Below, in pieces: positions 39 to 25,627 of a DNA stretch of 64,000 bases. The position numbers and the translations under genes are program-made. The DNA comes from Candidatus Nezhaarchaeales archaeon (GTDB taxonomy: Archaea; Thermoproteota; Methanomethylicia; Nezhaarchaeales; WYZ-LMO8). The notes beneath the pieces are model-generated. The model ran no database searches. It had not been told where the DNA came from and was given only the letters and a program-made list of their open reading frames with translations. The stretch is taken from positions 576,001 to 640,000 of the forward strand of contig JAWAKK010000001.1 of the NCBI GenBank assembly GCA_038887515.1. Direction: 5' to 3'. How positions within the stretch are numbered: position 1 is the stretch's first letter; every line of letters starts with the position of its first letter.

Positions 39-968
39 TCATTTCTTTTCAACTAATGCTATCAGCCTAACTATTGAGCCGTCTCCTCCGGCCCATCTAA
101 GCGGAAGCCCTATCAAGATGCACCTCTTGCCAGTCACCTTGTCTATGTCTCCTCCGACGTTCTCATAACCCATGACTCCGTTGGTTAGTAGGATTCTGTG
201 GCAGGGCTCCCAGTATGGGAAGTCCTCTCTAGGATCGCGGCCGAACGTCTTCTTGTATTCCTCAACTAGCCACGGAACTACTATGTTCCTCTCGTCAAGC
301 GTTCCAGGACCTTGAGACCATATTTCCCTCGTGTACAGCGGGTGATCGAGTGCTTGTGTATCTAGGCCTACAGCCTTCACCCCTCTCTTAACCAACCACC
401 ATGCAGCTTCGATGGATAAGCCAGGTGAATAGCAGAAGTACTTTACGGTGTCGCCCCAGTACTTGTGCCAGCCAGTGTTTATTATTACCATATCGCCGGG
501 CTCTATCGATGGCTCGGCCTTCTCTAGTTCTTCAACAGTTATGAACTCCCACTTGCCCTTAGGTATCGATACAACCACACCTTCACCCATGTACCTTTCG
601 ACAGGGATTTGATCGGTTGTAGGGAAGCCCTCCTCGACGTGGACTGGTGAATCTGCATGGGTCGTTACGTGCATGACTGTCGTAATCCTTTGAGTTAATA
701 CGCGTGACTTGCTGTGGTAGTGGATTCTATCGAAGTGGACGTCCTCGAAGTACGGCCAGAGCGGGGCATGGAAGCCGAAGGGCCATGAGAGGTCGTATAC
801 CTCGAATTCTCGGCCGAGTAGCCTTAATGGTGGCTTCTTAAGTATGTCTTCTGGTTTGCCTATCCACTTTGGATCTAACATTCCATGTATGTAAGGCGTG
901 TCTACGGGAAGGTTCTTGATGTACTTAGGGGATTTCGGTAGGTCCTTTGGGATTTCGATCTTGCTCAT
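39..968 (-). CDS. Cyclase (kynurenine formamidase-like) family metal-dependent hydrolase; candidate dihydrophloroglucinol cyclohydrolase
   Basis: HVTTHADSPVH (HxxTHxDxPxH) motif, GLDTQALDH, YENV, PLRWAGGDGSIVR typical of the cyclase family. Specific function is inferred from context. Confidence 0.85.
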   Translation of the reverse strand: MSKIEIPKDLPKSPKYIKNLPVDTPYIHGMLDPKWIGKPEDILKKPPLRLLGREFEVYDLSWPFGFHAPLWPYFEDVHFDRIHYHSKSRVLTQRITTVMHVTTHADSPVHVEEGFPTTDQIPVERYMGEGVVVSIPKGKWEFITVEELEKAEPSIEPGDMVIINTGWHKYWGDTVKYFCYSPGLSIEAAWWLVKRGVKAVGLDTQALDHPLYTREIWSQGPGTLDERNIVVPWLVEEYKKTFGRDPREDFPYWEPCHRILLTNGVMGYENVGGDIDKVTGKRCILIGLPLRWAGGDGSIVRLIALVEKK

Positions 969-1038
969 AACCTAATCCCCCTCGACCCTCTACGAGGTAC
1001 TTCCATATTTAAGTTTTAAGCGGCATTTAACTTCAACA

Positions 1039-1923
1039 TTAAGCCCAGACGGTTACTCCTCCGTCCACCAGCAGGACTTGTCCAGTTACAAAGTTCGAAG
1101 CATCGGAAGCGAAGAATATTATAGCGCCGACGACGTCGTCGGGAACTGCCCATCTGCCAAGCAGTATGCGTGACTTCATAGTCTGAGATAACTGCGGGTT
1201 CTTCGGTATATGTGCTGTGAGCGGGGTCAGCACGACCGTAGGCGCTACGGCATTTACTTGGATATTGTACTTGGCCCACTCGGTGGCTAGCTGCCTCGTT
1301 AAACCCACGACCGCCGCCTTACTGGTGCAGTAGGCCACGTAGTTGCCCGGTAGACCAAAGAATGACCTCACGGAGGCTATGTTAATTATCTTGCCCCTCC
1401 TCTGCTTTATCATTACCTTGCCTACTTCTCTACAAGTCAAGAATACTCCCGTAACGTTAGTTTCTATGACTGAGTGCCAGTTGTTGAGTGGATACTCCTC
1501 GGCTGGATTTGATGGTATATTTATTCCCGCAAACGTAATCAGTACATCTATTCTACCGTAAGCGTCCACGACTTGTTGGGCCAATCTCTTAACATCGTCC
1601 TCCTTAGTTACGTCAGCCTGAACCGTAGTAGCTTCTCCTCCAACCTCTCTTACCATGTCTATAGTTTCCTTCAGTTTCTCCAAGTTTCTGCCCACTAGAA
1701 CTACCTTAGCTCCAAAGTCTGTTAGGGCGAGAGCTGTAGGTGTACCAAGACCTCCAGCGCCCCCAGTTATAACTGCAACTTTACCCGTCAAGTCGAATAG
1801 CTTCTTGTAATACAATTGCTTCTTTTTGACTCTCTCGGCCAAGAATTGTTGGTAGGCTTCGTACGACTCAGATATCTTAAACCAGTCGACCTTACTCCAA
1901 CTAAATTCCTCCGCCAAAGCCAT
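1039..1923 (-). CDS. SDR oxidoreductase (likely NADPH-dependent); candidate phloroglucinol reductase
   Basis: TGGAGGLG Rossmann motif, GRN after beta-2, YCTSK catalytic motif, FVTGQVLLVDGG C-terminus, ~35-aa N-terminal extension. Confidence 0.9.
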   Translation of the reverse strand: MALAEEFSWSKVDWFKISESYEAYQQFLAERVKKKQLYYKKLFDLTGKVAVITGGAGGLGTPTALALTDFGAKVVLVGRNLEKLKETIDMVREVGGEATTVQADVTKEDDVKRLAQQVVDAYGRIDVLITFAGINIPSNPAEEYPLNNWHSVIETNVTGVFLTCREVGKVMIKQRRGKIINIASVRSFFGLPGNYVAYCTSKAAVVGLTRQLATEWAKYNIQVNAVAPTVVLTPLTAHIPKNPQLSQTMKSRILLGRWAVPDDVVGAIIFFASDASNFVTGQVLLVDGGVTVWA

Positions 1924-1929
1924 ACACCT

Positions 1930-2286
1930 CTAGTCGGGGTAACTTACTACTACTAGCATTGAGGCCGGCATATTGGTCTCATTAATTATCCTCCGCTTAA
2001 CGCCGGAGGGAATGTATATTGAGTCCATAGGACCCAGCGTGTATTTATTGCCCTCCTCATCGATGACTGTTATCGCCCCCGAAAGGACGAAGTAAACCCG
2101 TTCAGGTCCTGAATCCATTTCAGCGCCGCCGCCTGGCAGGAAGTGGGAAAGCCCTACCCAGAACTTTTGGGTGCCAGTAGTATCTCTACTGTGGAGTCTC
2201 AAAGCAACCATGTTGAAGTGCTTTGGTGCCTCGTATGGCTTTACGTCCTTTAACTCCACCTTCTTAATCTTGCTCATTAATATCAC
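1930..2286 (-). CDS. Cupin domain protein
   Basis: FLPGGGAE...ERVYFVLSG...GPMDSIYIPSG cupin signature; operonic with the SDR and cyclase. Confidence 0.85.
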   Translation of the reverse strand: MILMSKIKKVELKDVKPYEAPKHFNMVALRLHSRDTTGTQKFWVGLSHFLPGGGAEMDSGPERVYFVLSGAITVIDEEGNKYTLGPMDSIYIPSGVKRRIINETNMPASMLVVVSYPD

Positions 2287-2566
2287 CCTTCTTCAAGTTA
2301 AAGGGGTCCCCTAGAATTTTTAAGTTTTATTTTCCTCGATAGCTGCGCGCGGAAGACTTTCCATGGTAGGTTTAAGGCCGTAGGCAAAGTCTCCGCGTAA
2401 GTATTGAATGTTAGATGCTCAGTAAAGTGGAGATCACGCCTTGTAAGTGTACTTTCATCGGGTATGCCAAGGTCCTTAGCTAGTACGCAAAGAAAGGCAA
2501 TAGAATAATAGGAGAAATTTTTTAACTCTTCACGACTTCAAAGGTGTAGCAATTGAGCTAAAAGGG

Positions 2567-3625
2567 GTGGCAAAATTGCCGTTTCATGGCGAATATAAAG
2601 ACTTAGAGGTAATTGATGAAGGTCAAGGAGAACTTCTAAACTGGATGGATCCAGAGGACTTTCGGGAGTGGGTGCGCAAAAACAAAGATACGTCGCTTGT
2701 CGAAAAAGTCATGGACCCCAAGGAGGCCGTAAAAAAATTCATCAATGATGGTACTTACATAGCCTTAGGAGGATTCGGCCAAGTTCGAGTACCAATGGCC
2801 TTAATATACGAAATTATCAGGCAGGGCAAGAGAAACCTAGTAGCTTCAGGGAAGACGTCAACCCACGATCTCGATGTACTGATAGCGGCTGGATGCGTCA
2901 GTAAAGTGGAGGCCTCATATCTTTCAGCCGGCCACGAGCTAAGAGGGCTCTCGCCCGCAACTCGTAGAGCTGTTGAAAGCGGCCGCGTTAAGGTTGCAGC
3001 TGAATGGAGCAATGCAGCTCTTCAGTGGAGGTTTAAGGCTGCTGCTAACGGGTTACCGTGGATACCATCCTTTATACTCATGGGAACCGACACCTTTAGG
3101 CGAAGCGCTGCGAAAATAGTTAGGGATCCATTCACCAAAAGGGCCATATGTTTAATACCTGCATGCTTCCCTGACGTTGCCATCATCCACGTACATAGAT
3201 GTGATGTGTACGGTAACAGCCAGATAGACGGCATAACAATCATGGACTGCGAGCTCGCTAGGGCTGCGAAGAGGGTTATTATAACGACTGAGAAGATAAT
3301 ACCTCACGAGAAGATACGCGAAGAGCCATGGCGTACAGTAATTCCATTCTTTGTAGTAGATGCAGTCGTCGAAGTGCCGTTCGGTAGCCATCCCTGTAAC
3401 ATGCCGACGCTCTATTACTACGATGAAGAGCAAATGGGCGAATACCTAAACCTTACGAGAACTGAGGAGGGCACAAAGGCTTACTTTGAGAAGTATGTCT
3501 ATAGCGTTTCGGACCATTACGAATATTTGGAGAAGGTTGGAGGCGTGAAGAAGCTAATGCGATTAATTATGCTTGAACAAGGTAGAATACCGTTTGAGTA
3601 CCCGTGGGTTGCGGCTAAGAGGTGA
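2567..3625 (+). CDS. Family I CoA-transferase subunit A (glutaconate CoA-transferase-like)
   Basis: DGTYIALGGF, PDVAIIHVHRCDVYGN, VDAVVEVPFGSHP motifs. Confidence 0.88.
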   Translation: MAKLPFHGEYKDLEVIDEGQGELLNWMDPEDFREWVRKNKDTSLVEKVMDPKEAVKKFINDGTYIALGGFGQVRVPMALIYEIIRQGKRNLVASGKTSTHDLDVLIAAGCVSKVEASYLSAGHELRGLSPATRRAVESGRVKVAAEWSNAALQWRFKAAANGLPWIPSFILMGTDTFRRSAAKIVRDPFTKRAICLIPACFPDVAIIHVHRCDVYGNSQIDGITIMDCELARAAKRVIITTEKIIPHEKIREEPWRTVIPFFVVDAVVEVPFGSHPCNMPTLYYYDEEQMGEYLNLTRTEEGTKAYFEKYVYSVSDHYEYLEKVGGVKKLMRLIMLEQGRIPFEYPWVAAKR

Positions 3626-3629
3626 TGGT

Positions 3630-4409
3630 ATGAGTGGAGAACTTAAGTATACTAGGATGGAGCAGATGATTATAGCCTCGGCAAAGATGCTAGAGAACGG
3701 AAAAATAGTTTTCGTTGGCACCGGGATGCCCCTACTAGCAGCTATGGTTGCAAAAGCACTTTACTCTCCAAAGCTAGTGCTCCTTTTCGAAGCTGGAGGT
3801 ATAGATCCGCTTCCTGGACCAACGTTACCCATTAGTGTTGGAGACTCCATGACTACATGGAAGGCTAGCGCTGCGTTAAGCATGGATTACGTAATGACGT
3901 TGGCACAAGCAGGATTCATAGAGTACGGAATGTTAGGCGCGGCTCAAATAGACATGTACGGCAACATTAATACGACGGTTATAGGTCCTTGGGAAAGACC
4001 CAAAGTAAGGTTTCCCGGTAGCGGAGGAGCTAACGATATTGGATCACTTTGTTGGAGAACTATAGTCATAATGAGACAGGATAAGACTAAGTTCGTTGAA
4101 AAGCTTGATTTCCTTACAACCCCAGGCTATTTCAATGGCCCTGGAGCTAGGGAGAGAAACGGTCTGCCTAGAAACACAGGCCCGTGGAGGGTCGTAACTC
4201 AGCTCGGCGTTTACAGCTTCGACGAGAAGGACAAGAGAATGACGTTGCTAGCGGTATACCCCGGCGTTAGCCTTGAGGAGATAAAGGAGAATAGCGGCTT
4301 CCCCATAAAAATACCGGAAAAAATTGAGGTGCTCCCGGAGCCGACTGCCGAAGAGTTAAGGGTTCTGAGAAAACTAGATCCTTACGGCCTTGTCCTTGGT
4401 AAGGGCTAA
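3630..4409 (+). CDS. Family I CoA-transferase subunit B (glutaconate CoA-transferase-like)
   Basis: VFVGTGMP, catalytic Glu in LLFEAG, LGAAQIDMYGNINTT, PGSGGANDI. Start moved to ATG 3630 after a GGTG RBS. Confidence 0.88.
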   Translation: MSGELKYTRMEQMIIASAKMLENGKIVFVGTGMPLLAAMVAKALYSPKLVLLFEAGGIDPLPGPTLPISVGDSMTTWKASAALSMDYVMTLAQAGFIEYGMLGAAQIDMYGNINTTVIGPWERPKVRFPGSGGANDIGSLCWRTIVIMRQDKTKFVEKLDFLTTPGYFNGPGARERNGLPRNTGPWRVVTQLGVYSFDEKDKRMTLLAVYPGVSLEEIKENSGFPIKIPEKIEVLPEPTAEELRVLRKLDPYGLVLGKG

Positions 4410-4548
4410 CTTAACCTCCTCTACGAGTTTTATTCTTTTCCCCTTTTATTAGGTAACCCTCTCGTAGGTAAGATACTTATATTACTGGAAGAAGTCTTGA
4501 GAAAGGTTAAAAAACTTCAACGTTCGTTGTATGCTTTGGTGAGCGTTA

Positions 4549-5505
4549 ATGTCTTGGAACTATAATGATATGCAGGAATGGATTAGGAGGGTGAGGAGAG
4601 GGGAGCTACCTCCCCTGATAATAACTGTCGCGATAACTGGAGGAATACAGGGAAAAGAGGTCACTCCTTACCTTCCTGAAAGCCCCGAAGAGCAAGCTCA
4701 ACAAGCATACGAAGCGTATAAGGCAGGTGCATCAATAGTACACATTCACGTTAGGGATCCGAAGACTGGCTACGCAACTCCGACAGCCGACCCGGCCCAG
4801 ATAAGGCTCGTGAACAAAAAGGTTAGAGAGCTATGTCCCGACATAATAATTAACAATTCAACTGGCATAGGCTTATTCACGTCTCTTGAAGAGAGGCTTA
4901 AAGTGCTCGAAGCAGATCCCGAAATAGCTTCGCTTAACGTTGGGCCTGTTGCCTGGAGAACCCTACTTAAGAAGAGGGAGCCCGTGAGGACGCAAGACGT
5001 ACAGGTAGACCTTACGTGGCCTCCGAACTTCACTTGGAGGGAGGCGGAAGTATTAGCTAAGAGGATGTTAGAGAAGAACGTAAAGCCTGAGTTCGAAGTC
5101 TATCAGCAAGGACACTTCCACGTGGTATATCATCTCATCGAAAACAACTTAACCAAAGAGCCGCACATCGTTCAACTAGTACTTGGAGTTACGGGTGGAG
5201 AGCTACCCCATTATAAGAACCTGATAAACATGGTGGAGCATCTACCTCCGAATAGCTTTCCGTTCGTAGTTGGAATAGGTCCATTCCAAGCATACCTAAC
5301 CACTATGGCTATAGTCATGGGCCTTCACGTCAGAGTGGGCCTCGAAGACAACATATTCTACCGTAAAGGAGAGCTGGCAAAGAGTAACGCCCAATTAGTT
5401 GAGCGAGTAGTAAAGATAGCCAACGAGATAGGGAGACCCATAGCGACCCCCGATGAAGCTAGAAAGATGCTTGGACTACCTAAAGAACCTAAGCAATACG
5501 ACTAA
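4549..5505 (+). CDS. Beta-keto acid cleavage enzyme (BKACE/Kce, DUF849); candidate triacetate acetoacetate-lyase
   Basis: IITVAITG, HIHVRD (Zn), KPEFEVY, RVGLEDN, ATPDEARKMLGL. Confidence 0.9.
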   Translation: MSWNYNDMQEWIRRVRRGELPPLIITVAITGGIQGKEVTPYLPESPEEQAQQAYEAYKAGASIVHIHVRDPKTGYATPTADPAQIRLVNKKVRELCPDIIINNSTGIGLFTSLEERLKVLEADPEIASLNVGPVAWRTLLKKREPVRTQDVQVDLTWPPNFTWREAEVLAKRMLEKNVKPEFEVYQQGHFHVVYHLIENNLTKEPHIVQLVLGVTGGELPHYKNLINMVEHLPPNSFPFVVGIGPFQAYLTTMAIVMGLHVRVGLEDNIFYRKGELAKSNAQLVERVVKIANEIGRPIATPDEARKMLGLPKEPKQYD

Positions 5506-5584
5506 CGGCTAACAATTTGAAGGCGATAAGCTTATGGGGCTTCTACGATAGCGCGTATTAAGGGACTTAATGGAGGGATAATAG

Positions 5585-6547
5585 TTGAATAAAGTTAACA
5601 TAAGGAAAGTAGCAGTATTGGGAGCCGGAACCATGGGTCATGGTATAGCTCAAGTTTGTGCTCAGAGCGGTTACGAAACCGTAATGGTAGCTACTAAGCC
5701 AGAGAGTCTGGCGAGAGCCCTAAACAATATCAAGAAGGATCTCGAAGTCTTCGTAAAGAAGAACCTCATAAATCGAGAGGACGTCGACAGAATAGTTTCA
5801 AGGATAACTATCGAGTTAAGCGTAGCAAAGGCCGTGAGAGAGGCAGATTTCGTGATCGAAAGCGTTGTAGAGGACTTGGAGGTTAAGAGAAAGATATTCA
5901 AGGAGGTTGACGATAACGCGCCTCCCCACGCGATCCTGGGCACCAATACGTCCACTATAAGCATAACTGAGCTTGCTAAAGTCACTCGTAGGCCCCAGAT
6001 GGTCTTAGGGGTGCACTTCTGGAACCCGCCGCACCTCATGCCATTAGTTGAGATAGTTAAGACCGAGTACACATCGGATGAAGCCGTCGAGGTCGCAAGA
6101 GCGTTTATCGAAGATCTAGGAAAAGTCCCAGTTCTATGTAAGAAAGAGGCTCCAGGCTACCTTGGAGTTAGGCTCCAGGCAGCCATAGTCCTAGAGGCTA
6201 CTAGGATGCTTGAAGAAGGCGTAGCCTCAGCTGAAGATATAGATATAGCGGTTAAGATGACTCTAGGATTGAGGTATCCTCTATTTGGACCACTACAGGT
6301 GGTCGATTTAGGAGGTGTAGACGTCTTCTACTACGCTTACAGCTACTTGTATAACGCAACTAAAGAGGAGCGGTTTAAACCGCCGAAGATCCTTAAAGAG
6401 CTTGTTGAAAAGGGCAAGCTCGGAGTAAAGAGCTACGAGGGCTTTTACAAGTACACTCCAGAGCAAGTAGAAAAGATAGTAAAGCTCAGAGACGAGTGGT
6501 TAATAGACCAACTCATAAGCAGAGGCCTACTAAAAATAAAGAAGTAA
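5585..6547 (+). CDS. 3-hydroxyacyl-CoA dehydrogenase family protein; candidate 3-hydroxy-5-oxohexanoate dehydrogenase
   Basis: GAGTMGHGIA, ESVVEDLEVK, TNTSTI, HFWNPPHLMPLVE, GKLGVKSYEGFY. Confidence 0.9.
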   Translation: MNKVNIRKVAVLGAGTMGHGIAQVCAQSGYETVMVATKPESLARALNNIKKDLEVFVKKNLINREDVDRIVSRITIELSVAKAVREADFVIESVVEDLEVKRKIFKEVDDNAPPHAILGTNTSTISITELAKVTRRPQMVLGVHFWNPPHLMPLVEIVKTEYTSDEAVEVARAFIEDLGKVPVLCKKEAPGYLGVRLQAAIVLEATRMLEEGVASAEDIDIAVKMTLGLRYPLFGPLQVVDLGGVDVFYYAYSYLYNATKEERFKPPKILKELVEKGKLGVKSYEGFYKYTPEQVEKIVKLRDEWLIDQLISRGLLKIKK

Positions 6548-8792: not shown

Positions 8793-9815
8793 ATGGAAAT
8801 TTATGACTTTGAAGCCCACTTCTATACGAAAGATTACGTTAAAGCTCTGCTTAAAAACAAGGCTTATCCAAGATATAAGAAAGATGAGAAGCAAGATATC
8901 TATTGGCTTTTATATACGCCTAGCGTCCAAGAACCCCACGTAGGAGCGTTGCTTGAAAAGCTCCTCAACGTAGAGGAGAAGAGAATACATGATATGAGGG
9001 AGGCCGGCATAAAAGTTCAGATCCTAAGTCTCTCGGCACCTGGATGTGAGCAGCTAGGACCTAAGTTAGGTTCTAGGATGGCTAGGAAGGTCAACGACGA
9101 ACTCTCGAGGATCGTTGAGAAAAACCCCGACAGATTCATTGGGCTCGCAGCCCTCGCACCTCAAAGTCCCCAAGAAGCTGCGGAAGAGCTTGAGAGGGCT
9201 GTTAAGGATCTCGGACTTAAGGGTTGGAAGACCCACTCCAACATACGTGGTGAGTACCTAGACAACGAGAAGTTCTGGCCTATACTAGAGAGAACTGAGA
9301 GGCTTCGTGTACCAATATTTCTGCATCCTACCGTCCCGAGGATAAAACAACTCGGAGAACCCTACGGGTACGCAATGGCTGGTCCAGCCTTTGGTTTCGT
9401 TTTTGAGACTGCTATGTGCTTAATGAGATTAATACTGAGCGGCGTCTTCGATAAGTTCCCTAACCTAAAGTTCGTGCTAGGGCACCTTGGAGAGGCCATG
9501 CCGTTTCTCATCAACCGTATAGACTTTCCTCGCGTGAGGCCATGGGTCTACGAAAGCATGGACGTAAAAATATCGAAGAAGCCCAGCGAGTACTTGAAGA
9601 ATAATGTGTTTATACTTACGAGCGGCGAATTCCCCGTACCAGCAATATCCTGCGCCATAGAGATAATGGGCTTAGACAGGGTTCTCTTCGGTTCAGACTA
9701 TCCCTACGAAAACTCTGTAGATGCTGTGAAGCGCATTGAAGCTCTACCTCTCTCAAAGGAGGAAAAAGAGAAGATATACTCTCAAAACGCTAAATCGCTC
9801 CTAGGTATACGTTGA
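8793..9815 (+). CDS. Amidohydrolase-2 family non-oxidative aromatic acid decarboxylase (gamma-resorcylate/2,3-DHBA decarboxylase-like)
   Basis: DFEAH, FLHP, LILSGVFDKFPNLKFVLGHLGEAMPF, FGSDYPYE. Confidence 0.85.
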   Translation: MEIYDFEAHFYTKDYVKALLKNKAYPRYKKDEKQDIYWLLYTPSVQEPHVGALLEKLLNVEEKRIHDMREAGIKVQILSLSAPGCEQLGPKLGSRMARKVNDELSRIVEKNPDRFIGLAALAPQSPQEAAEELERAVKDLGLKGWKTHSNIRGEYLDNEKFWPILERTERLRVPIFLHPTVPRIKQLGEPYGYAMAGPAFGFVFETAMCLMRLILSGVFDKFPNLKFVLGHLGEAMPFLINRIDFPRVRPWVYESMDVKISKKPSEYLKNNVFILTSGEFPVPAISCAIEIMGLDRVLFGSDYPYENSVDAVKRIEALPLSKEEKEKIYSQNAKSLLGIR

Positions 9816-9896: not shown

Positions 9897-11768
9897 GTGG
9901 TAGCATTGGTTTATGGTTATGCTGGTAAGATACTCTACATAGATCTAACGACCAAAGAAAGCTGGGTCAAAGCTCTCGATGTAGATTACGTCTATCCCGT
10001 AATCGGTGGAGCTGGGCTTGGAATAAAGATACTCATGGACGAGGTCAACCCGAAAGTTGAACCACTATCCCCTGAGAACAAACTGATCTTTGCTGTAGGT
10101 CCACTAACAGGATCCTTAGCCCCCTGTACAAGTAGGATGGCTGTCGTATCTAAATCACCCTTAACAGGCGCAGTTGGAATGTCGCTTAGTGGCGGGTACT
10201 TCCCAGCTGAACTCAAGTTCGCCGGTTATGATGCTATCGTAATATCGGGGAAAGCAGATGGACCGTCGTACATATGGATATACGACGATAAAGTGACCAT
10301 AGGAGATGCATCAGGAATCTGGGGCTTATCGACGACCGATACCCAAATAATATTGAGGGAAAAACTGAATCAACCTGAAGCTAAAGTAGCATGTATAGGA
10401 CCGGCTGGTGAAAGACTAGTACGATACGCATGCATAATAAACGAGAGGAGGGCGGCAGGAAGAAAGGGTCTAGGCGCTGTCATGGGTTCTAAGAACCTTA
10501 AGGCGATAGCTGTGAGGGGGACGAAAAAAGTTGAAGTTGCCGACCAAGAGAAGTTCAGAAAAGCTGTCAAGAGGATGTACGACTTAATGAAGGAAAGCCC
10601 TGTTCTCTACCCCTCTTTCTCGAAGATGGGGACACCTATGACTGTTGAGGTTACGGCCGAGCTTGGAATACTTCCAGCTAAAAACTGGACTGCTACTGGC
10701 CTGTTCGCCCCAGTTGAAACTCTTGGTGGAGAGGCACAAACTTATTACACCATCACCCGTATGGGTTGCTACAATTGTCCCGTAAGGTGCGGACAGGTAA
10801 AGGTTGTTAAAAGCGGTCCCTTCGCCGGCTTTATGACTGAAGGGCCTGAGTTCGAGACCACATATAGCCTTGGAACCATGGTCGGTGTCAGCTACCTGCC
10901 GGCTGTAATAGCTGCCGACAGGCTATGCGACGAATACGGCTTAGATACCATATCCACTGGAGTATGCATAGCTTTTGCGATGGAGCTCGTCGAAAAAGGT
11001 ATACTGTCGGCGGATGAGGTCGACGGTATGGACCTTAGATTCGGCAACTACGAAACCGTGGTAAAGATGATTAGAAAGATAGCCTTCAGAGAAGGGTTTG
11101 GAAACATACTTGCCGAGGGGGTTAAGCGTGCCTCAGAACTCATTGGAAGAGGCTCGGAGAGGTATGCACTTCACGTTAAAGGTCTTGAGCTACCTGGTTA
11201 TGACGTTAGAGGAGCTAAAGCGCACGGCCTAAGTTACGCTACTGCCTATACTGGAGCAGATCACAATAGGGGTTACTCTATACAAGAGATATTCAGTGTC
11301 CCAGTACCTTACAAAGTGGATAGGCTAGCGATAGAAGGTAAAGGAAAGCTTTGCAAGTGGAACCAGGACGTTAGGACTGCCGTCTGCGACTGCATGCCGC
11401 TCTGCGTGTTTCCGTTCGACATGGGGCTCGCAGCCAACGCCTTAGAGCTGATGTCAGAGCTCTACACAGCCTTAACCGGTTTATCCATGACGCCGGAGGA
11501 AGTCCAGAAAACTGGAGAAAGAGTCGTCAACATAGCTAGGGTATTTAACTTTAAGGCTGGCTTTACGAGAGCTGACGACACTCTCCCAGCGAGAGTCATG
11601 AAGGAGGGCATACCTGGAGGGGCATCGAAAGGACAAGTGATAACTCGAGAAGACCTGAATAAGATGCTAGACGAGTATTACGAAGCTCGAGGTTGGGATA
11701 AGGAGAAGGGCATACCAACTAAAGAAAAGATGGTTGAACTTGGCCTACCAATTGAGTGGCTAGCTTGA
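9897..11768 (+). CDS. aor: Tungsten-dependent aldehyde:ferredoxin oxidoreductase family
   Basis: GYAGKILYIDL, KSPLTG, GAVMGSKNLKA, CYNCPVRC, EGPEFET, DEYGLDTIS, YYEARGWD. Confidence 0.93.
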   Translation: MVALVYGYAGKILYIDLTTKESWVKALDVDYVYPVIGGAGLGIKILMDEVNPKVEPLSPENKLIFAVGPLTGSLAPCTSRMAVVSKSPLTGAVGMSLSGGYFPAELKFAGYDAIVISGKADGPSYIWIYDDKVTIGDASGIWGLSTTDTQIILREKLNQPEAKVACIGPAGERLVRYACIINERRAAGRKGLGAVMGSKNLKAIAVRGTKKVEVADQEKFRKAVKRMYDLMKESPVLYPSFSKMGTPMTVEVTAELGILPAKNWTATGLFAPVETLGGEAQTYYTITRMGCYNCPVRCGQVKVVKSGPFAGFMTEGPEFETTYSLGTMVGVSYLPAVIAADRLCDEYGLDTISTGVCIAFAMELVEKGILSADEVDGMDLRFGNYETVVKMIRKIAFREGFGNILAEGVKRASELIGRGSERYALHVKGLELPGYDVRGAKAHGLSYATAYTGADHNRGYSIQEIFSVPVPYKVDRLAIEGKGKLCKWNQDVRTAVCDCMPLCVFPFDMGLAANALELMSELYTALTGLSMTPEEVQKTGERVVNIARVFNFKAGFTRADDTLPARVMKEGIPGGASKGQVITREDLNKMLDEYYEARGWDKEKGIPTKEKMVELGLPIEWLA

Positions 11769-11778: not shown

Positions 11779-12423
11779 CTACTTCTCCTTTTTAATTTCA
11801 TATATGAACGGTAAGATGACGGCTAGGTTCCTCATCTCCTCAACGCAGTGCTGAAACAGTCCCTTAGCCATCTCATAGCTCGCATACTTCGGGTTAAGCC
11901 AGAACCTGCTCCTCATCTCGCATCCTACATCCCTGTCTCTGACGAAGTGAGTCATGAAGCCCGTTTCGACCTCTCCATCTGCTCCTCGAAAGTATATTCG
12001 AGCACAGACCGCAGTAGCTTTTGCTTGCTCGAGCTTAGCTGGATTGAAGTATTGCGAGGGATCCTGAAAGTGTATCCTGAGCTTAGCTACTGGGGGTTTG
12101 CCCCCCAGAGTCTCGTCAACTATGTGGCTTGCTCCAATGTAGCTTCCAGGGCTCCACTTGTCGTCCCACGCACCGTATATGTGGTCAACTGGATGCCAAA
12201 GCTTGTAGACCTCAGTATGCTCCTTAGGAGATAGACCATAAGCGAACCACCACTCAATCATTCTCCTATTGCAGAGAGGCATTCTCGTAAGCACTGCTAC
12301 TAAGTAATAGCCATCAGGTAGACGAACGTACCCGCTCTCTAAAGGCAGGTAGCCGGGCTCTAAAAGTCTACCTATTTCTTCAAGCCGCAACCCAAGACTC
12401 TCCAACAATTCATAGACCTCCAC
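11779..12423 (-). CDS. PhlG / phloretin hydrolase family C-C hydrolase
   Basis: LESGYVRLPDG, MIEWWF, YKLWHPVDH, EMRSRFW, HCVEEMRNLA (Zn ligands) characteristic of DAPG/phloretin hydrolases. Confidence 0.85.
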   Translation of the reverse strand: MEVYELLESLGLRLEEIGRLLEPGYLPLESGYVRLPDGYYLVAVLTRMPLCNRRMIEWWFAYGLSPKEHTEVYKLWHPVDHIYGAWDDKWSPGSYIGASHIVDETLGGKPPVAKLRIHFQDPSQYFNPAKLEQAKATAVCARIYFRGADGEVETGFMTHFVRDRDVGCEMRSRFWLNPKYASYEMAKGLFQHCVEEMRNLAVILPFIYEIKKEK

Positions 12424-12522
12424 AAATTCTAATTACTTTCAACTCCTCGATATTATCATCGTAATCTATTTAAATTTAGCTCGAGTAATTATTTTAACTA
12501 GCAAGCAAACTATATACAACAT

Positions 12523-13881
12523 ATGGTGGAAAAATTGGAGAAGAAAGAAGGCGTTGGGTTAACGAAAGTCCAAGCGATAGCGATAGTGGTCGTTGTCGTC
12601 GTTATTGTTGCGGGCGTTGCCGCCTACTTCTTAACCCTACCTCCACCAGGTCCAGCTGCCCCCGAGTACATAAAGATCGGCTGGCCAGCTCCAATAACTG
12701 GGGGCATAGCAGCCTTTGCTGAGACTACGCCTTGGATGGTCGAGCAAGTTGAAAAGTATGTTAACAACGTTATGGGCGGCGTTTACTTAGCTGAGTACGG
12801 TAAGAAGGTCCCGATAAAGATCATCTTGAGGGATATTAAGAGCGATTCAGATGCTGCTGCTTCAGTTGCTGCTGAGCTAATAACTAGAGAGAACGTAGAC
12901 TTAATGTTGGCCCTATACTCTCCAGCCATGACTAACCCGATAAGCGCCCAATGTGAGAGGTACGGAGTCCCATGTATTGTCTCCCAAACTATAATAGTTT
13001 CGTGGTTAATGGGAGGCCCCTACACTTGGTCATATTGTATTGGGCTAGCAGAACCAGACTACGCTGTACTATTCTTCGACCTCTTCGATACCATTAAAGA
13101 CAAGACAAATAAAGTTGTTGCTCTGATAAATTCTGATGATCCCGACGGTAGAGCTACTGCGGCTGCCTGGAAGGCACAAGCTGAGAAGCGAGGATATACG
13201 ATAGTGGATCTTGGCCTAATACCCTACGGTACGAAAGATTTCAGCACGTACGTGGAAGCATGCAAGAAGGCCGGAGCAGACATACTTACAGGCAACATGA
13301 TTCCCACGGACTTCGCATCATTCTGGAGGCAATGCAACGAGATGAGTTACAAGCCGAAGCTCGTGGCGATGGCTAGGTCCCTCCTGTTCCCATCGTGGGT
13401 AGCTGCTCTAGGCGGCGACTTAGGGAATGGATTAGTCGGATACATTTGGTGGACGCCCTACCATCCATACGAGTCTTCGTTAACGGGACAGACTCCTCAA
13501 GACCTATGCCAAGCTTGGGAGACCTACTCTGGCAAACAGTGGACTCCTGTTTTAGGGATGACTCACGCGGTACTTGAAGTTGCGGTTAAAGCGATCGAGA
13601 AGGCTGGAAGTCTCGATAAGGCCAAGATAAGGGATGCGTTAGCCAACATAGACTTAAACACTATAGTTGGACGCGTCAACTTCAAGGCTCCTCTAACGTC
13701 TAGCCAGCAAGCGAGGTATCAAGCATTTGAGAACATGATTAAATACAAGGATCACTACGTCGTCGTACCACCAGTCGCAATTCAGTGGGTTAAGGTAGGG
13801 GAACGCTGGGATCCAGTAATAATTTACAATTGGGAGAGTCCAGATATCCCTGTTACAGGTAAGCTTTTCTTACTGAACTGA
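12523..13881 (+). CDS. ABC-type solute-binding protein (LivJ/PBP1 family) with N-terminal membrane anchor
   Basis: N-terminal TM helix and Pro-rich linker, IKIGWPAPITG, RDIKSD, AIEKAGSLDKAKIRDAL. Confidence 0.85.
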   Translation: MVEKLEKKEGVGLTKVQAIAIVVVVVVIVAGVAAYFLTLPPPGPAAPEYIKIGWPAPITGGIAAFAETTPWMVEQVEKYVNNVMGGVYLAEYGKKVPIKIILRDIKSDSDAAASVAAELITRENVDLMLALYSPAMTNPISAQCERYGVPCIVSQTIIVSWLMGGPYTWSYCIGLAEPDYAVLFFDLFDTIKDKTNKVVALINSDDPDGRATAAAWKAQAEKRGYTIVDLGLIPYGTKDFSTYVEACKKAGADILTGNMIPTDFASFWRQCNEMSYKPKLVAMARSLLFPSWVAALGGDLGNGLVGYIWWTPYHPYESSLTGQTPQDLCQAWETYSGKQWTPVLGMTHAVLEVAVKAIEKAGSLDKAKIRDALANIDLNTIVGRVNFKAPLTSSQQARYQAFENMIKYKDHYVVVPPVAIQWVKVGERWDPVIIYNWESPDIPVTGKLFLLN

Positions 13882-14972: not shown

Positions 14973-16493
14973 TTGCTTAAGCTTAAAGGCGATGTATTTA
15001 AGGATGTTATTGAAAAAGATCGAGACGTATACAAATTTAAGACCTTCTTAGCTGGTGACTGGGTTAGCGGCGAAGAAAGCGTTGAAGTGAGGAGCCCCAT
15101 AGATCTCAGCGTGATAGCTAGAGTTCCAAAGCTGACGTTCGATGAAGCTGAAAGGACCTTGGACGTCGTATATAAAGCTGGTAGGTGGAAGATCAGGGAC
15201 GTGCCGGGGTGGAGAAGGCTTGATATGCTAGAAAGGTTGGCTGACCTAATGGAGGAGTACAGCGAAGACCTCGTAGAGACATTAATAGTCAACACCGGAA
15301 AGACTGGGCCCCAAGCGATTGGTGAAGTAAATGCTTCAATAGATAGGCTTAGAAGAGCCGACTTAGATGCTAGGAAGATATTCGGTGAGTACATACCAGG
15401 CGACTGGGATCAGACAACCATGGAGACGGAGGCAACCATAAGGAGAGAGCCCCTCGGAGTTGTCTTGGCCATTGTGCCTTTCAACTACCCGCTCTTCGAT
15501 TCAGCCGCTAAGTTCGCCTACAGCATTGTGGCTGGAAACGCCGTAATGATAAAGCCTCCATCGGCAGACCCGCTACCAGTCTTACTATTCGCAAGACTAA
15601 TTGAAGAGGCCGGGTTCCCCAAAGAATCCTTTGCTGTCCTAACCCTACCAGGCGGGGAGAGCGGTAGACTCGTAGCAGACGAAAGAATCCACGTAATCAG
15701 CTTTACTGGAAGTAGCGAGACCGGCAAAAAAGTGCTAGCTGCAGCTGGGATAAAGCAGTTCGTAATGGAGCTTGGCGGGGGAGACCCAGCAATAGTCTTA
15801 GAGGACTCCAACCTAGAGCTAGCCGCAGAAAGGATAGCTGCGGGAATATATAGCTACGCTGGACAGAGGTGCGACGCGATAAAGCTCGTCATCGTAGAGG
15901 AGAGCATATACGACGAGTTTAAGAGAAAGTTGGCGAAGGAGCTAGCTAAAGTAGTCGTAGGAGACCCTAGGGATGGCATAACGGTCATGGGCCCGCTGAT
16001 AAGTCCGGATGCTGTAGATAGGATGCTCAATGCAGTTGAAGAAGCAGTAAGTAGGGGAGGAACCGTAGTCTACGGTGGCAGGAGGCTTGGATCGACGTAC
16101 GTGGAGCCGACATTAGTGGAGTTCCTCAATAAGAGTTCCTTAAAGGATTTAAGACTATATAGGGAGGAAGTCTTCGCCCCCGTAGCGTTGATCACGAGCT
16201 TCAAGGAATTGGATGAAGCAGTAGATTTAGCGAATGGTAGAAGGTACGGGTTGGACGTATCCATATTTGGCTTCAACATAGAGAGGCTAAGGAGGCTCAT
16301 TAGGTTCCTCGAGTTTGGAGCCATATACGTAAACGACATGCCTAGGCACGGAGTCGGCTACTACCCCTTCGGAGGTAGAAAGGAATCTGGGATTGGGAGG
16401 GAAGGAATAGGCTACTCGATAGAGTACGTGACGGCCTACAAGACCATAGTCTTCAACTTTAGAGGTATGAGAATTTGGAAGTACGCTGGGTAG
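14973..16493 (+). CDS. gapN: Non-phosphorylating NADP-dependent glyceraldehyde-3-phosphate dehydrogenase
   Basis: ALDH fold; IFGEYIPGDW, PFNYPLFD, MELGGGDP, YAGQRCDAIK typical of archaeal GAPN. Confidence 0.92.
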   Translation: MLKLKGDVFKDVIEKDRDVYKFKTFLAGDWVSGEESVEVRSPIDLSVIARVPKLTFDEAERTLDVVYKAGRWKIRDVPGWRRLDMLERLADLMEEYSEDLVETLIVNTGKTGPQAIGEVNASIDRLRRADLDARKIFGEYIPGDWDQTTMETEATIRREPLGVVLAIVPFNYPLFDSAAKFAYSIVAGNAVMIKPPSADPLPVLLFARLIEEAGFPKESFAVLTLPGGESGRLVADERIHVISFTGSSETGKKVLAAAGIKQFVMELGGGDPAIVLEDSNLELAAERIAAGIYSYAGQRCDAIKLVIVEESIYDEFKRKLAKELAKVVVGDPRDGITVMGPLISPDAVDRMLNAVEEAVSRGGTVVYGGRRLGSTYVEPTLVEFLNKSSLKDLRLYREEVFAPVALITSFKELDEAVDLANGRRYGLDVSIFGFNIERLRRLIRFLEFGAIYVNDMPRHGVGYYPFGGRKESGIGREGIGYSIEYVTAYKTIVFNFRGMRIWKYAG

Positions 16494-17962: not shown

Positions 17963-19204
17963 TTGAGGATAGCTTTCGTCACCATGGAGTACCCTCCCAA
18001 CGTCTACGGAGGTTTGGGGGTCTACTCTCAGGAGGTAGCAACGCGCCTAGTTAAGCTAGGCCACGAAGTCCACGTCTTCACAATGAATTCAGGGGAGTTA
18101 CCGAGAGAGGCCAACGATGGAGGGGTCTACGTTCATAGGTTTAAGCCGGTAAACGCTGCCTCCTTACTTAAGGTCGTCGTAAACGAGGAGCTGAATAGGT
18201 GGGGGCCCGGCTTTAGGTACTTTAACGACGTCCTGCTTTACAACGTGGAGGCTGCACTCACAATCGTTAAGCCCTTTGAGGGAGGCGAGGGCTACGATGT
18301 CGTAGCAGTCCACGACTGGCTATCGGCGATGGCTGGGCTCATAGTTAAAGATGAGCTAGGGATACCGTTAATCTTCCACGTGCACTCTACCGAGAAGGGA
18401 AGGAACTTTGGTGGAGGATCCGCCACTGTGTCAGCCTTAGAAGTGTTATGTGCCGATAGGGCGGATTCTATAGTTACGGTCTCTAACGCTATGAGGGACG
18501 AGGACTTGATCCCCCAAGGCTTTCCGGCGGGTAAGATACGCGTAGTATGGAACGGCGTTGATCCCCACAAGTTTTCACCTTCAAGGGTCTCAGAGCACGC
18601 AGTTAAGGAAGTTAAGGATAAGTACGCTACAACTAATGGACCCCTAATACTTTTCATCGGTAGGCTCGTTAAGGTCAAGGGTGTAGACAAGCTAATAGAG
18701 GCTATGCCGTACGTGGTAAAAGAATACCCGGAAAGCAGGCTACTTGTGGTAGGTCGGGGGGACCTCTACGACTACCTAGTGCATTTAGCCGGTAAACTCG
18801 GCGTAGCTGGCCGCGTTAGCTTCATTGATAAGTTTCTAGGCGACCAAGAGAAGGTTGTTATCTACGCTGCATGCGATGTAGCTGTCTTCCCCAGCCTGTA
18901 CGAGCCCTTTGGCATAGTAGCCCTAGAGGCCATGTCCATGGAGAGGCCCGTCGTCGTCGGCGCTAGGGGTTGTAGTGGTCTTCGTGAAATAGTTGTTCCA
19001 TCAGGCGCTGGCCAGTGCGGCGTACACGTAAACCCCTACGACCCCAAAGACATAGCTTGGGGTATAACTGCAGTTCTCTCAAGTCAAGACCGTGGTAGGT
19101 GGATGGGCTTGAACGGTAGGAGGAGAGTTCTCGATAGCTTTACGTGGGATCATACTGTTTCAAGGACTTTAAAGGTTTACGAGGAAGTCGCTAAGAAAGC
19201 TTAG
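17963..19204 (+). CDS. GT4 glycosyltransferase, probable glycogen synthase
   Basis: MEYPPNVYGGLG, HDWL, HSTEKGR, PSLYEPFGIVALEAM. Confidence 0.88.
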   Translation: MRIAFVTMEYPPNVYGGLGVYSQEVATRLVKLGHEVHVFTMNSGELPREANDGGVYVHRFKPVNAASLLKVVVNEELNRWGPGFRYFNDVLLYNVEAALTIVKPFEGGEGYDVVAVHDWLSAMAGLIVKDELGIPLIFHVHSTEKGRNFGGGSATVSALEVLCADRADSIVTVSNAMRDEDLIPQGFPAGKIRVVWNGVDPHKFSPSRVSEHAVKEVKDKYATTNGPLILFIGRLVKVKGVDKLIEAMPYVVKEYPESRLLVVGRGDLYDYLVHLAGKLGVAGRVSFIDKFLGDQEKVVIYAACDVAVFPSLYEPFGIVALEAMSMERPVVVGARGCSGLREIVVPSGAGQCGVHVNPYDPKDIAWGITAVLSSQDRGRWMGLNGRRRVLDSFTWDHTVSRTLKVYEEVAKKA

Positions 19205-19426
19205 CTACACGAAGTTGACAGCATTATAAGAATCTACCCTATTGTTTATCAGACCGTAGGCTAAGGTCGTCTAGCCAAAGTTCTCTTAATTTAAAATGGT
19301 CAACGTCTAGGCGAAACCCATAAATCAGCGGAATCGCTCGCTCGAACATTCTAGAAGGTGATACCGGCTATAGCATTGAGGACGCGGAACAAGAGTGTGC
19401 TTTAAACTTCGCGTATAAAGCTACGT

Positions 19427-19759
19427 TTAAATTAGCGATACGTCGACTGCTAGTTGCGAGTCAAGTCTCTTCAATTCTAGCTTTTTGAGAGGTCTTTCAG
19501 AGATGTTGTTTAACGGCTCGCCGCTCTTAACATTGAACTTTGCGTAGTGAAAGCCACACGTCAAAGTATGTCCTTCTAACGATCCGAGAAATAGCGGGTA
19601 GTCCATGTGAGGACATCGATTATCGTAAGCGTAGAAGTCGTTTTCAAGTCTTATTATTAGGATTTCGAGGTTCCCCATCTTTACTAGCTTCATCCCGTTC
19701 CTAGGCACTTCGTCGACCCTACATAGCTCGACAAGTTTACCGCTCATACTTCCCTTCAC
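19427..19759 (-). CDS. Rieske-type [2Fe-2S] ferredoxin
   Basis: CPH...CGFH Rieske ligands. Confidence 0.88.
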   Translation of the reverse strand: MKGSMSGKLVELCRVDEVPRNGMKLVKMGNLEILIIRLENDFYAYDNRCPHMDYPLFLGSLEGHTLTCGFHYAKFNVKSGEPLNNISERPLKKLELKRLDSQLAVDVSLI

Positions 19760-19777
19760 AAAAAAGAGGTTAAGAGT

Positions 19778-20359
19778 TCATTCTATGTGTCTAAACTTCT
19801 GCGTGTATGGACCTTCTCCAGGTTTCCTACGTCTAAAGTGCCCGGAAGGCCTTCCTTCTAGGAGTTCTTGGAACCAAGCCTCGTGCTCTATCTCCTCATG
19901 TAAGATCGATAGCGATAGGTCGTATGTTCTCGGATCCTTGCCGAAGGTCATGTTGCATATCTCCGTATAAACTCTTACTGCACATCTCTCAGCTTCCAGC
20001 AAGACCTTGAGGATGGCCTTTAAATCGCTGGGATCCGCAGGTAAGTAAGCCGCCGGACAGGCGGCGGCGTCGTGGAGTTCTTTAAGGTCCCTATAAAGTT
20101 CGCCTCCAAGCTCATATATGCGTGGCACAAGAGCCTCGAAATGAAGCCTATCTTCAAGCCTAGCGTCCTCTACGACCTCCTTTATAGCTTCTCCTTCTAG
20201 CCCTGTACAATGCATTCTCAAAAGGGTATAATAGTAGTACGTAGTGAACTCGGCGGCAGCTGCCCTCTTCAACTTATCTATCAGGAGGTCGACGTCGACT
20301 CCAGCTTTTTCAACCATTTCCCTTCCAACGTTAGTAGAATACTTCCTCTCTTTTACCAT
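19778..20359 (-). CDS. dps: DPS-like (DpsL) ferritin-family protein
   Basis: [44 protein letters not shown]. Confidence 0.93.
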
Positions 20360-20702
20360 AACTTTGCATCCCTCAATTTTAAAAACAGACCTTTAATCTA
20401 TTAAATGTGTATTCAGTTTTTTGTATGTCTTAAAAAACTAATCATTGTACTATTTCGATTTATAAAAATAAAAGAGTATTACGTAGAATGAGAAGCTATA
20501 TTATAAGTAAAGTAGCTCTCCACCGTAATAGTAAGTTGTAATTGGAGAACCGTGAACTCAAGTTATCCTGCCTACCTAAGTAAACTTAAGTAAAAATGCA
20601 AAACATTTAGCATTGAAACTTGAGTTGCAGTTGAAGATGGCTGCAATTCTTAGCCCTTGCACCTACGAAGAGGTCCCCCATAAATGGTAAGCCGGTCCTT
20701 TA

Positions 20703-21446: not shown

Positions 21447-21491
21447 CGGTACCGCTCATCTCGTACCGTATTTCGATAATCCCTAACTCAT

Positions 21492-23275: not shown

Positions 23276-23292
23276 CAGCGTGCACCCGCCTG

Positions 23293-23538
23293 TTAACTAC
23301 TTATGGAGAGAGCAGAGATGATCCCCCTGTAGGTTAGGTAGAATCGACCGCCCTCCTCATTAACGTAGCCGAGCTCCTTACAGCACTTTAAGAGCTCGTT
23401 TACTTCGTTCTCGTTCATCATCTTGGAGTACTTCGCGATTTCGCTTATGCCGACGGCCGTTTCGTCGTTTATTGCCGATAAAAAGTACATGACCGATAAG
23501 ACCTTATGTATCCTAGATATTAATTCGCACCCGTTCAT
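23293..23538 (-). CDS. Small winged-HTH protein
   Basis: ISEIAK...VNELLK..KELGYV..EGGRFYLTYRG wHTH pattern; ATG directly after the upstream stop. Confidence 0.6.
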   Translation of the reverse strand: MNGCELISRIHKVLSVMYFLSAINDETAVGISEIAKYSKMMNENEVNELLKCCKELGYVNEEGGRFYLTYRGIISALSISS

Positions 23539-23540
23539 AA

Positions 23541-25601: not shown

Positions 25602-25627
25602 CTACGAAAATATAAGCATTAAGGGGT

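Follow-up and report, generated by a model that had tools for sequence, protein, structure and literature searches.

Phloroglucinol is the common intermediate in the oxygen-free breakdown of flavonoid and tannin rings. Here we describe a seven-gene locus at positions 39-6547 of a window of 64,000 nucleotides from a Candidatus Nezhaarchaeales archaeon (GenBank assembly GCA_038887515.1, contig JAWAKK010000001.1, positions 576,001 to 640,000). From gene families, diagnostic residues and conserved neighbourhoods, we infer that the pathway leading from phloroglucinol to acetyl-CoA without oxygen is encoded here in an archaeal form, a reading to which we give a probability of roughly 0.7. A phloroglucinol role is well supported, on the sequence evidence, for the two enzymes of the upper pathway, a candidate reductase and a candidate ring-opening hydrolase, and reasonably supported for the genes of the lower pathway.

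The seven open reading frames (ORFs) form two divergent runs, at exactly the positions and in the Pfam families given by an earlier reading of the same DNA (the original prediction), whose description of the gene content therefore stands. The minus-strand run comprises a cyclase-family hydrolase, the candidate dihydrophloroglucinol cyclohydrolase (DPGC; 39-968, 309 aa; PF04199, 119 bits), a short-chain dehydrogenase/reductase (SDR), the candidate NADPH-dependent phloroglucinol reductase (PGR; 1039-1923, 294 aa; adh_short_C2, 215 bits), and a small monocupin (1930-2286, 118 aa; Cupin_2, 46 bits). It is separated by a divergent intergenic region (2287-2566, from the ORF coordinates) from the plus-strand run: subunit A of a Family I CoA-transferase of the glutaconate-CoA-transferase type (2567-3625, 352 aa; CoA_trans PF01144, 130 bits), subunit B (3573-4409, with a likely start at 3630, 278 aa; CoA_trans PF01144, 114 bits), the candidate triacetate acetoacetate-lyase, a beta-keto acid cleavage enzyme (BKACE) from a clade of its own (4549-5505, 318 aa; PF05853, 292 bits), and a dehydrogenase of the 3-hydroxyacyl-CoA dehydrogenase (HAD) family, the candidate (S)-3-hydroxy-5-oxohexanoate dehydrogenase (5585-6547, 320 aa; 3HCDH_N 226 bits, 3HCDH 86 bits). 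All seven Pfam scores are far above the curated cut-offs, and hence the arrangement is no chance product. On its left side the cyclase is bordered by genes with no relation to the cluster (Sir2, a nuclease and archaellum genes), which makes the cyclase the left edge of the cluster.

The host genome (1.29 Mb, 94% complete) is that of an archaeon, as judged from an archaellin gene (PF01917) 8 kb upstream of the cluster and from the nearest homologues of the cyclase, which come from archaeal metagenome-assembled genomes (MAGs) both in the protein search and in the contig scan. The cyclase, the BKACE, the 3HCDH protein and the CoA-transferase pair are each single-copy genome-wide and all lie within the cluster; consequently, they are not parts of a general beta-oxidation system. 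When cluster genes of eight loci were compared with the host genome by reverse tblastn, they matched the window cluster alone. Two thiolases and an ATP-grasp_5 acetyl-CoA-synthetase-like ORF are encoded elsewhere in this genome.

The anaerobic pathway was worked out in Clostridium scatologenes by Zhou et al. (mBio 2023, PMC10470551), a paper on whose main text and figure legend we draw. There, PGR is an NADPH-dependent SDR that reduces phloroglucinol, DPGC a Mn-dependent 'cyclase'-family enzyme that opens the ring, TfD a HAD-family enzyme that oxidises the ring-opened product as the free acid (CsTfD prefers NADH) and TAL a BKACE that cleaves triacetate; an acetoacetate CoA-transferase and then a thiolase end the route (PMC10470551). 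The statement in the original prediction that the cyclohydrolase belongs to the cyclase family was thus correct, and the CoA-transferase that it had placed at the activation of acetoacetate figures at the same step of the published scheme (PMC10470551). By its neighbourhoods, the window cluster belongs to a cyclase-SDR-HAD-BKACE module that is widespread and, in the 2023 paper, is attributed to phloroglucinol.

In the scheme that we propose for the archaeon, the SDR (1039-1923) would reduce phloroglucinol to dihydrophloroglucinol with NADPH, and the cyclase-family metal hydrolase (39-968) would open the ring to yield 3-hydroxy-5-oxohexanoate. This free acid would be oxidised to triacetate (3,5-dioxohexanoate) by the HAD (5585-6547), probably with regeneration of NADPH. 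The BKACE (4549-5505) would then convert triacetate and acetyl-CoA into acetoacetyl-CoA and acetoacetate, the latter being turned into acetoacetyl-CoA by the glutaconate-type CoA-transferase (2567-4409). The final conversion to acetyl-CoA, acetate and ATP could fall to two enzymes whose genes lie outside the cluster, a thiolase and an acetyl-CoA synthetase of the ADP-forming type. Phloroglucinol itself may be supplied by two neighbouring genes, one PhlG-like and the other hydroxybenzoate-decarboxylase-like, to which we return below.

The cyclase has the residues expected of a DPGC. In a 14-sequence alignment (A1), its metal motif H100-x3-H104-x-D106-x-P108-x-H110 is invariant and aligns with the metal motif of KynB; W71 is invariant as well, and Y73 is present in at least 90% of the rows, with P72 between the two. 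These residues match Trp20/Tyr22 of the C. scatologenes enzyme, the pair that replaces the Ile/Leu of isatin hydrolase and is diagnostic of DPGC (PMC10470551), and in a 250-aa bacterial form (P0111) they stand at positions 20 and 22, which is the CsDPGC numbering. In its metal motif as in its Trp/Tyr pair, the window cyclase accordingly agrees with the C. scatologenes enzyme. The protein search yielded 873 relatives at E <= 1e-5 among 1635 candidates, the best being 85% identical. Among the best 120 of the 873, identities of 69-77% were seen for named relatives belonging to Bathyarchaeia, Caldarchaeum, Nitrososphaerota, Freyarchaeota and Archaeoglobus (72% for A. fulgidus), and the 250-aa bacterial forms are ~64% identical. 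Over all searches, bacterial homologues are 55-65% identical to the window protein. Rubrivivax gelatinosus is named in the main text of PMC10470551 both as a carrier of the cluster and as a reported degrader; its cyclase homologue shares 55% identity with the window protein (over 250 aa) and 75% with the cyclase of a Bacillota cluster (L036). The window cyclase also has an N-terminal extension of ~50 aa that is missing from the 250-aa bacterial forms. More generally, archaeal cyclases and SDRs carry N-terminal extensions of ~40-50 residues that are not found in the bacterial cluster proteins, and the window cyclase and SDR differ from the C. scatologenes enzymes in this respect. Many other relatives of the cyclase (P0012, P0013, P0018-P0034 and others) have roughly double the normal length, at 500-541 aa, with 45-51% identity over 81-91% of the query; one such long protein, P0042, also has a PF11256 domain.

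Could these proteins simply belong to other subfamilies, the cyclase to KynB, the BKACE to the Kce of lysine fermentation and the dehydrogenase to the fatty-acyl HADs? The labelling by JGI of many cyclase homologues as 'kynurenine formamidase' is in line with this, as is the fact that the lysine Kce model is the best NCBIfam match of the BKACE. However, the cyclase scores 58.8 bits on the KynB equivalog TIGR03035, whose cut-off is 223, and its PDB matches to KynB reach just 29-33 bits, so that the KynB outcome envisaged in the original prediction is absent. The BKACE, for its part, remains under the cut-off of the Kce equivalog NF052387 (257 bits vs 382), and the window protein has an Ile in place of the Glu with which Kce holds the 5-amino group. 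Moreover, the genome has a single 3HCDH protein and no other beta-oxidation HAD, and the conserved neighbours are an SDR and a cupin rather than genes of tryptophan or lysine metabolism. We regard such a misassignment as highly improbable.

The SDR has the classical YxxxK motif ('YCTSK' in the translation). Its best NCBIfam model is NF006070 (255 bits); three SDRs of bacterial clusters were compared with it, and their best model is the same (256-276 bits). When eight cluster SDRs were used as tblastn queries against the host genome the window SDR was the sole match. PGR is characterised by a TR(S/N) motif that contacts the 2'-phosphate of NADPH (PMC10470551). After strand beta-2 the window protein reads V-G-R-N, which has the Arg-Asn but no Thr next to it; 50 of the 57 aligned cluster SDRs (window included) have [G/A/S]-R at this position, commonly with a Thr before it. 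No PDB entry named PGR was found among the best 60 of 176 matches to the window SDR or the 8 matches to the SDR of L024, nor an NCBIfam PGR model among the 25 families listed per protein. Similarly, the PDB sequence, NCBIfam, L036-seeded protein and ESM Atlas searches gave, among the matches listed, no C. scatologenes sequence and no model named PGR, DPGC or TfD; the ESM Atlas returned generic 'cyclase family' clusters.

The gene neighbourhoods of cyclase homologues point in the same direction as the residues. Genome contigs were scanned with the cyclase as seed, and at the best 79 of 473 confirmed relatives we sought partners of the window proteins by tblastn (E <= 1e-10, at least 60% query cover, within 8 kb of the cyclase). 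An SDR was present at 57/79 loci, a cupin at 51, a HAD at 48 and a BKACE at 25, and 22 loci had SDR, HAD and BKACE together; in all these counts the loci are truncated where contigs end and the relatives are not mutually independent. Less frequent companions were a PhlG-like gene (9/79), a LigW-like gene (5/79) and a CoA-transferase subunit A (6/79); three of the last, in the bacterial clusters L013, L055 and L075, are 57-59% identical to the window subunit and have subunit B alongside, and the other three are ~30% identical. The module order, cupin included, is found on plasmids of Mycobacterium riyadhense and Novosphingobium pentaromativorans (pLA3), there under generic PGAP annotation and with cyclases 55-56% identical to that of the window.

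Two archaeal loci depart from the common pattern. In L006 (a MAG titled Bathyarchaeia), which has the cyclase, HAD, BKACE and cupin, no SDR was found, and the cupin is followed by a luciferase-like PF00296 oxidoreductase (12373-13269); the first step might there be taken by this other type of reductase, which perhaps depends on F420. In L009 (a MAG titled Caldarchaeum), a PhlG-like gene, the cyclase, SDR and cupin are followed by a DHDPS-family aldolase (4854-5837) that adjoins the HAD and takes the place of the BKACE, and may represent an aldolase-type lower branch. The same locus also has a second SDR-cyclase pair and a Peripla_BP_6 protein.

Turning to the lower pathway, the HAD retains S123, H144 and E156, which align with Ser117, His138 and Glu150 of the Clostridium butyricum 3-hydroxybutyryl-CoA dehydrogenase (HBD, 4KUG) and are invariant in 49 cluster HADs. 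Both positions at which the C. butyricum enzyme contacts CoA are altered: Lys56 is replaced by Leu61 and Asn221 by Arg230, the Arg being common to all 49 cluster HADs aligned, the window's included. TfD has likewise lost the contact residues Lys56 and Asn221, while retaining Ser, His and Asn (HBD Asn188 / CsTfD Asn194; PMC10470551). With its CoA-contact residues missing and its catalytic Ser, His and Glu kept, the window HAD fits the free-acid enzyme of that paper. It has no Asp at the end of strand beta-2, a residue that most bacterial cluster HADs have there, and for this reason it probably prefers NADP, unlike CsTfD with its preference for NADH. At this site the window HAD reads VMVATKPE and its counterpart in a genome of the same genus (G186; L086:10466-11428), which has no SDR, VMVDIKPE. 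The Ala/Asp difference in this one pair may be an NADP vs NAD switch linked to the presence of an NADPH-dependent reductase.

Both best matches of the HAD, in NCBIfam and in the PDB, are nevertheless 3-hydroxybutyryl-CoA dehydrogenases, and this raises the possibility of a route through CoA esters, in which the CoA-transferase would activate 3-hydroxy-5-oxohexanoate, the HAD would oxidise the CoA ester, thiolases would cleave triacetyl-CoA, and the BKACE would do something else. An older scheme of this kind was reportedly proposed for Pelobacter and Eubacterium. For E. oxidoreducens, the wording in the main text of PMC10470551 is merely 'or 3-hydroxyacyl-CoA intermediate'. The two thiolases of the host genome would suit such a route, and so would a CoA-transferase, complete with the Glu of the GctB 'VESG' motif, encoded between the two halves of the cluster. 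Against it, the HAD lacks both CoA-contact residues, with Leu61 and the family-wide Arg230 in their place, and scores far under the equivalog cut-offs (at best 270 bits vs 408), and a tightly linked BKACE would be left without a role. We consider this route improbable and retain oxidation of the free acid as the preferred reading.

The CoA-transferase has the two PF01144 subunits of Family I. Subunits A and B find their best PDB matches in GctA (1POI_A, 151 bits) and GctB (1POI_B, 189 bits), and matches to the NCBIfam 3-oxoacid transferase models are weak (48 and 38 bits). Subunit B probably begins at 3630 (a Met, residue 20 of the listed ORF), since this start lies 4 bp past the stop of the A subunit and the PDB alignments begin at residues 20-25. 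In the alignment with GctB, its E73 stands opposite the Glu of 'VESG', which we take to be the catalytic residue of the family. The pair thus resembles GctAB (1POI) in both subunits and in the conserved Glu, although its setting is not that of glutamate fermentation.

The motifs 'HIHVRD' and 'GLEDN' of the BKACE, presumably its zinc ligands, are conserved in all 24 cluster BKACEs aligned. These fall into four groups: a large bacterial clade, a Trp-bearing form that resembles Kce (L024), a short form (L049, L073), and the window protein together with that of L006. The large bacterial clade is the source of the proteins that score 383-416 bits on NF053538, the TAL equivalog (3,5-dioxohexanoate:acetyl-CoA acetone transferase); this model is the best one in five of the eight bacterial BKACEs tested, which ties their clusters to the characterised chemistry, even if they too remain under its cut-off of 430. 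The best PDB sequence match of the window BKACE is a lysine Kce structure (181 bits), with which it has the BKACE fold and the HxH and ED motifs in common; Glu14 of Kce is replaced by Ile33, and an insertion splits the alignment into two stretches.

A second scan, seeded with the BKACE, gave 80 metagenome loci, of which 30 have a BKACE at least 57% identical to that of the window and 50 one that is at most 54% identical; partners were counted at 50% identity or more. The two sets differ sharply. Beside the close BKACEs we found a HAD at 18/30 loci, an SDR and a cupin at 11/30 each, a DPGC-type cyclase at 8/30, and the CoA-transferase subunits A and B at 7/30 each (subunit A with a best identity of 78%), against 0/50 in every case beside the distant ones. 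One locus (L094) has six of the seven cluster genes at 66-83% identity, with CoA-transferase B at the contig end. The BKACE-seeded loci thus tie the window type of BKACE, the Val type of HAD (see below) and the glutaconate type of transferase to the upper genes, a linkage that by itself does not prove the reaction.

A number of findings weigh against the phloroglucinol reading. The ties to characterised enzymes are indirect, consisting of published residues, one named species (R. gelatinosus) and one NCBIfam model. In the upper pathway, the motif of the window SDR appears to be G-R-N instead of T-R-(S/N), and SDR specificity is in any case not readable from sequence. Nineteen of the 79 cyclase loci have no cupin, SDR, HAD or BKACE; some of them are short contigs, and one group bears the title Nitrospinota or just 'bacterium'. 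In the lower pathway, the BKACE scores 213 bits on NF053538, far below the cut-off, and higher (257 bits) on the lysine Kce model; it is just 30-40% identical to the bacterial cluster BKACEs; and where Trp16 of CsTAL replaces the Kce Glu14 that binds the 5-amino group (PMC10470551), it has Ile33, so that the Glu is absent and the CsTAL-type Trp is not there either. Among the 24 BKACEs aligned, that Trp is present in L024 only. The HAD has Val195 where CsTfD has Asn194 (HBD Asn188); the Val type is shared by the archaeal loci L005, L006, L008 and L009 and the Bacillota locus L036, and the other 43 of the 49 cluster HADs have Asn. Five metagenome loci (L109-L113) hold HAD and BKACE alone, and this lower pair may therefore serve another use. 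Finally, by DNA comparison, the congener G186 keeps an intact BKACE (93% aa identity) and HAD (82%) without SDR and cyclase. The 'complete' pathway of the original prediction survives in part: the gene families are all present, whereas the BKACE falls under both equivalogs (213 vs 430 and 257 vs 382) and the HAD is without the Asn of CsTfD.

Several of these points would also suit a division of the locus, with only the minus-strand run (SDR, cyclase, cupin) acting on phloroglucinol, and BKACE, HAD and CoA-transferase forming an older, separate module for some other beta-hydroxy/beta-keto acid such as 3-hydroxybutyrate/acetoacetate. The lower pair that G186 and L109-L113 have without the upper genes is what such a division predicts, and the failure of the BKACE on the TAL equivalog agrees with it; furthermore, the CoA-transferase pair is located elsewhere in four relatives, and L088 has a 90% identical BKACE with no DPGC-type cyclase within 8 kb. 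The G186 genome itself, however, contains the remains of a cupin directly upstream of its intact BKACE, a pseudogene (L086:8722-8999) with a frameshift after 'SHFLP' and a truncated 3' end whose C-terminus is gone. The genes must therefore have been linked before the loss, and what is left resembles a larger cluster in decay. Beside this remnant lie a saccharopine-dehydrogenase-like gene, an ArsR/permease pair and, 4.5 kb away, a resolvase. We read the G186 pattern as the decay of a once larger cluster, while conceding that it feeds equally the idea of an independent lower pair. At least one of SDR, cupin and cyclase accompanies 14/30 close BKACEs and 0/50 distant ones, in L006, L095 and L097-L102 the genes for HAD and BKACE are intermingled with those for cyclase, cupin or SDR, and without HAD and BKACE, of which the host genome has one each, the ring-opened product would be left with no visible route. 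On balance, a split of function seems to us unlikely, if rather less so than the CoA-ester route, and we continue with a single phloroglucinol pathway encoded by both runs.

The seventh gene encodes a cupin in which Y18, H23, Y65, R98 and N102 are invariant in the homologue alignment and there is no His triad. Its predicted model has a pLDDT of 93.5, and a fold search with this model returned generic small cupins, TM1459 and RemF (a polyketide cyclase) as the best and DddK besides; the PDB sequence search was weak (best E-value 5e-4), and neither search points to a function. The protein could be a tautomerase/isomerase or a handler of the polyketide-like triacetate intermediate. Besides its presence at the majority of cyclase loci, it is single-copy and inside the cluster in three bacterial genomes. 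In a 301-genome sample of another phylum (around G301), cyclase and cupin were each found in four genomes, both together in two. The cupin is thus a frequent though not constant partner of the cluster; the notion of an obligatory partner was given up, since only two of the four cyclase-bearing genomes in that sample have it. The idea that the window copy might be damaged was also dropped: a Val replaces the Glu found in 57 of 63 homologues, yet four other loci share this Val. The cupin distinguishes the window from the C. scatologenes system as described in the main text of PMC10470551, where the word has 0 occurrences, and among the literature matches listed no title ties a cupin to the phloroglucinol pathway.

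Compared with C. scatologenes, the window has four protein families in common, and in both systems the cluster is accompanied by a CoA-transferase and a phloretin-hydrolase-family gene; a figure legend of PMC10470551 lists CtfAB and DAPG_hydrolase/phloretin hydrolase among the co-located genes. The similarity extends to the residues, the window HAD being likewise without the CoA-contact Lys and Asn and the window BKACE likewise without the amino-binding Glu. The differences lie mostly in the lower pathway: the BKACE belongs to a separate clade, with Ile rather than Trp and a score under the NCBIfam TAL cut-off, the HAD has Val in place of Asn194, the CoA-transferase is GctAB-like rather than CtfAB, and the cluster contains neither thiolase nor kinase genes. 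The bacterial clusters also differ from the window. Their BKACEs belong mostly to the NF053538-like clade, their HADs keep the Asn and mostly the Asp ending beta-2, and a glutaconate-type CoA-transferase was found in just 3/79 loci.

The occurrence of this pathway in archaea is not new. A cluster was detected bioinformatically in the sulfate-reducing Archaeoglobus (PMC10470551), and the cyclase homologue of A. fulgidus DSM 4304 (P0044) is 72% identical to the window cyclase over 91% of its length; the original prediction, which named no characterised archaeal version, put the novelty too high. Archaeoglobus is of a different archaeal lineage, and the comparison made here with its cluster covers the cyclase. 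Our search for literature on archaeal phloroglucinol degradation gave nothing beyond PMC10470551 among the matches listed. What is new here is the archaeal variant of the lower pathway, the frequent cupin, the setting among possible feeder genes, and a patchy distribution with decay in a congener.

The distribution is indeed restricted. In a sample of 301 genomes of the same phylum as the window, with G000 counted, a cyclase orthologue (E <= 1e-60) was found in two, and in none of the four same-genus, one same-family and five same-order genomes. Of the region at 8.8-16.5 kb, which holds the possible feeder genes, five relatives have only short fragments of the oxidoreductase gene and, in G254, one 70% match to the aldehyde dehydrogenase, the rest being without DNA match.

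In that region, an Amidohydro_2 protein (8793-9815, plus strand; PF04909, 154 bits) resembles non-oxidative hydroxybenzoate decarboxylases, its best PDB matches being LigW/LigW2, at 211 and 209 bits, followed by gamma-resorcylate decarboxylase at 179 bits. A 76% identical homologue follows the HAD in L089. Possibly it is a feeder enzyme, its membership in the cluster being uncertain. On the minus strand, a phloretin hydrolase / PhlG-like C-C hydrolase (11779-12423; PF18089, 161 bits) has a stronger match in 5XE5, a phloretin hydrolase of Mycobacterium abscessus (74 bits), than in PhlG 3HWP (51 bits), and on the PhlG equivalog NF047887 it scores 55.8 bits against a cut-off of 600, while the DAPG_hydrolase domain is recognised. 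Relative to the solved homologues, the ORF lacks ~50 N-terminal aa, starting at about residue 54 of those chains. The gene is single-copy in the host genome, the family is found in 0/14 control genomes, and in L009 a homologue directly adjoins the cyclase; from its family, a role in releasing phloroglucinol from acylphloroglucinols is possible. A Peripla_BP_6 solute-binding protein (12523-13881, plus strand; PF13458, 150 bits), of the family also seen in the Caldarchaeum locus L009, possibly serves uptake, again with uncertain membership in the cluster. A tungsten-type aldehyde:ferredoxin oxidoreductase (9897-11768) and an aldehyde dehydrogenase (14973-16493) flank the PhlG-like gene and the binding protein. 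The PhoU_div/PHO4 phosphate pair downstream of the cluster looks unrelated to it. Further along the window, a series of GT4 glycosyltransferases together with a GH57 enzyme and a phosphorylase-like protein (17963-28772) looks like a cluster for glycogen/glucan metabolism, and there is a tRNA gene at 31466-31539.

These results do not overturn the known pathway; rather, the locus gives enzymologists archaeal proteins to work on and metagenome surveys a better set of markers, and it flags the cupin as a frequent partner gene of the pathway. Beyond Archaeoglobus, the module is also present in MAGs titled Bathyarchaeia, Nitrososphaerota and Caldarchaeum, where the lower-pathway enzymes differ from the characterised ones, and the trait is patchy and, in a congener, decaying. 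Which organisms can degrade phloroglucinol matters for the storage of carbon in soils and sediments that are anoxic. As a tentative and still doubtful extension, the cupin might be an unrecognised working part of anaerobic phloroglucinol catabolism in bacteria and archaea alike, and the archaeal module a self-contained, NADPH-neutral variant with its distinct BKACE clade, its Asn-less NADP-type dehydrogenase and its glutaconate-type CoA-transferase. If this were true, such a module would let archaea with small genomes ferment plant phenols.

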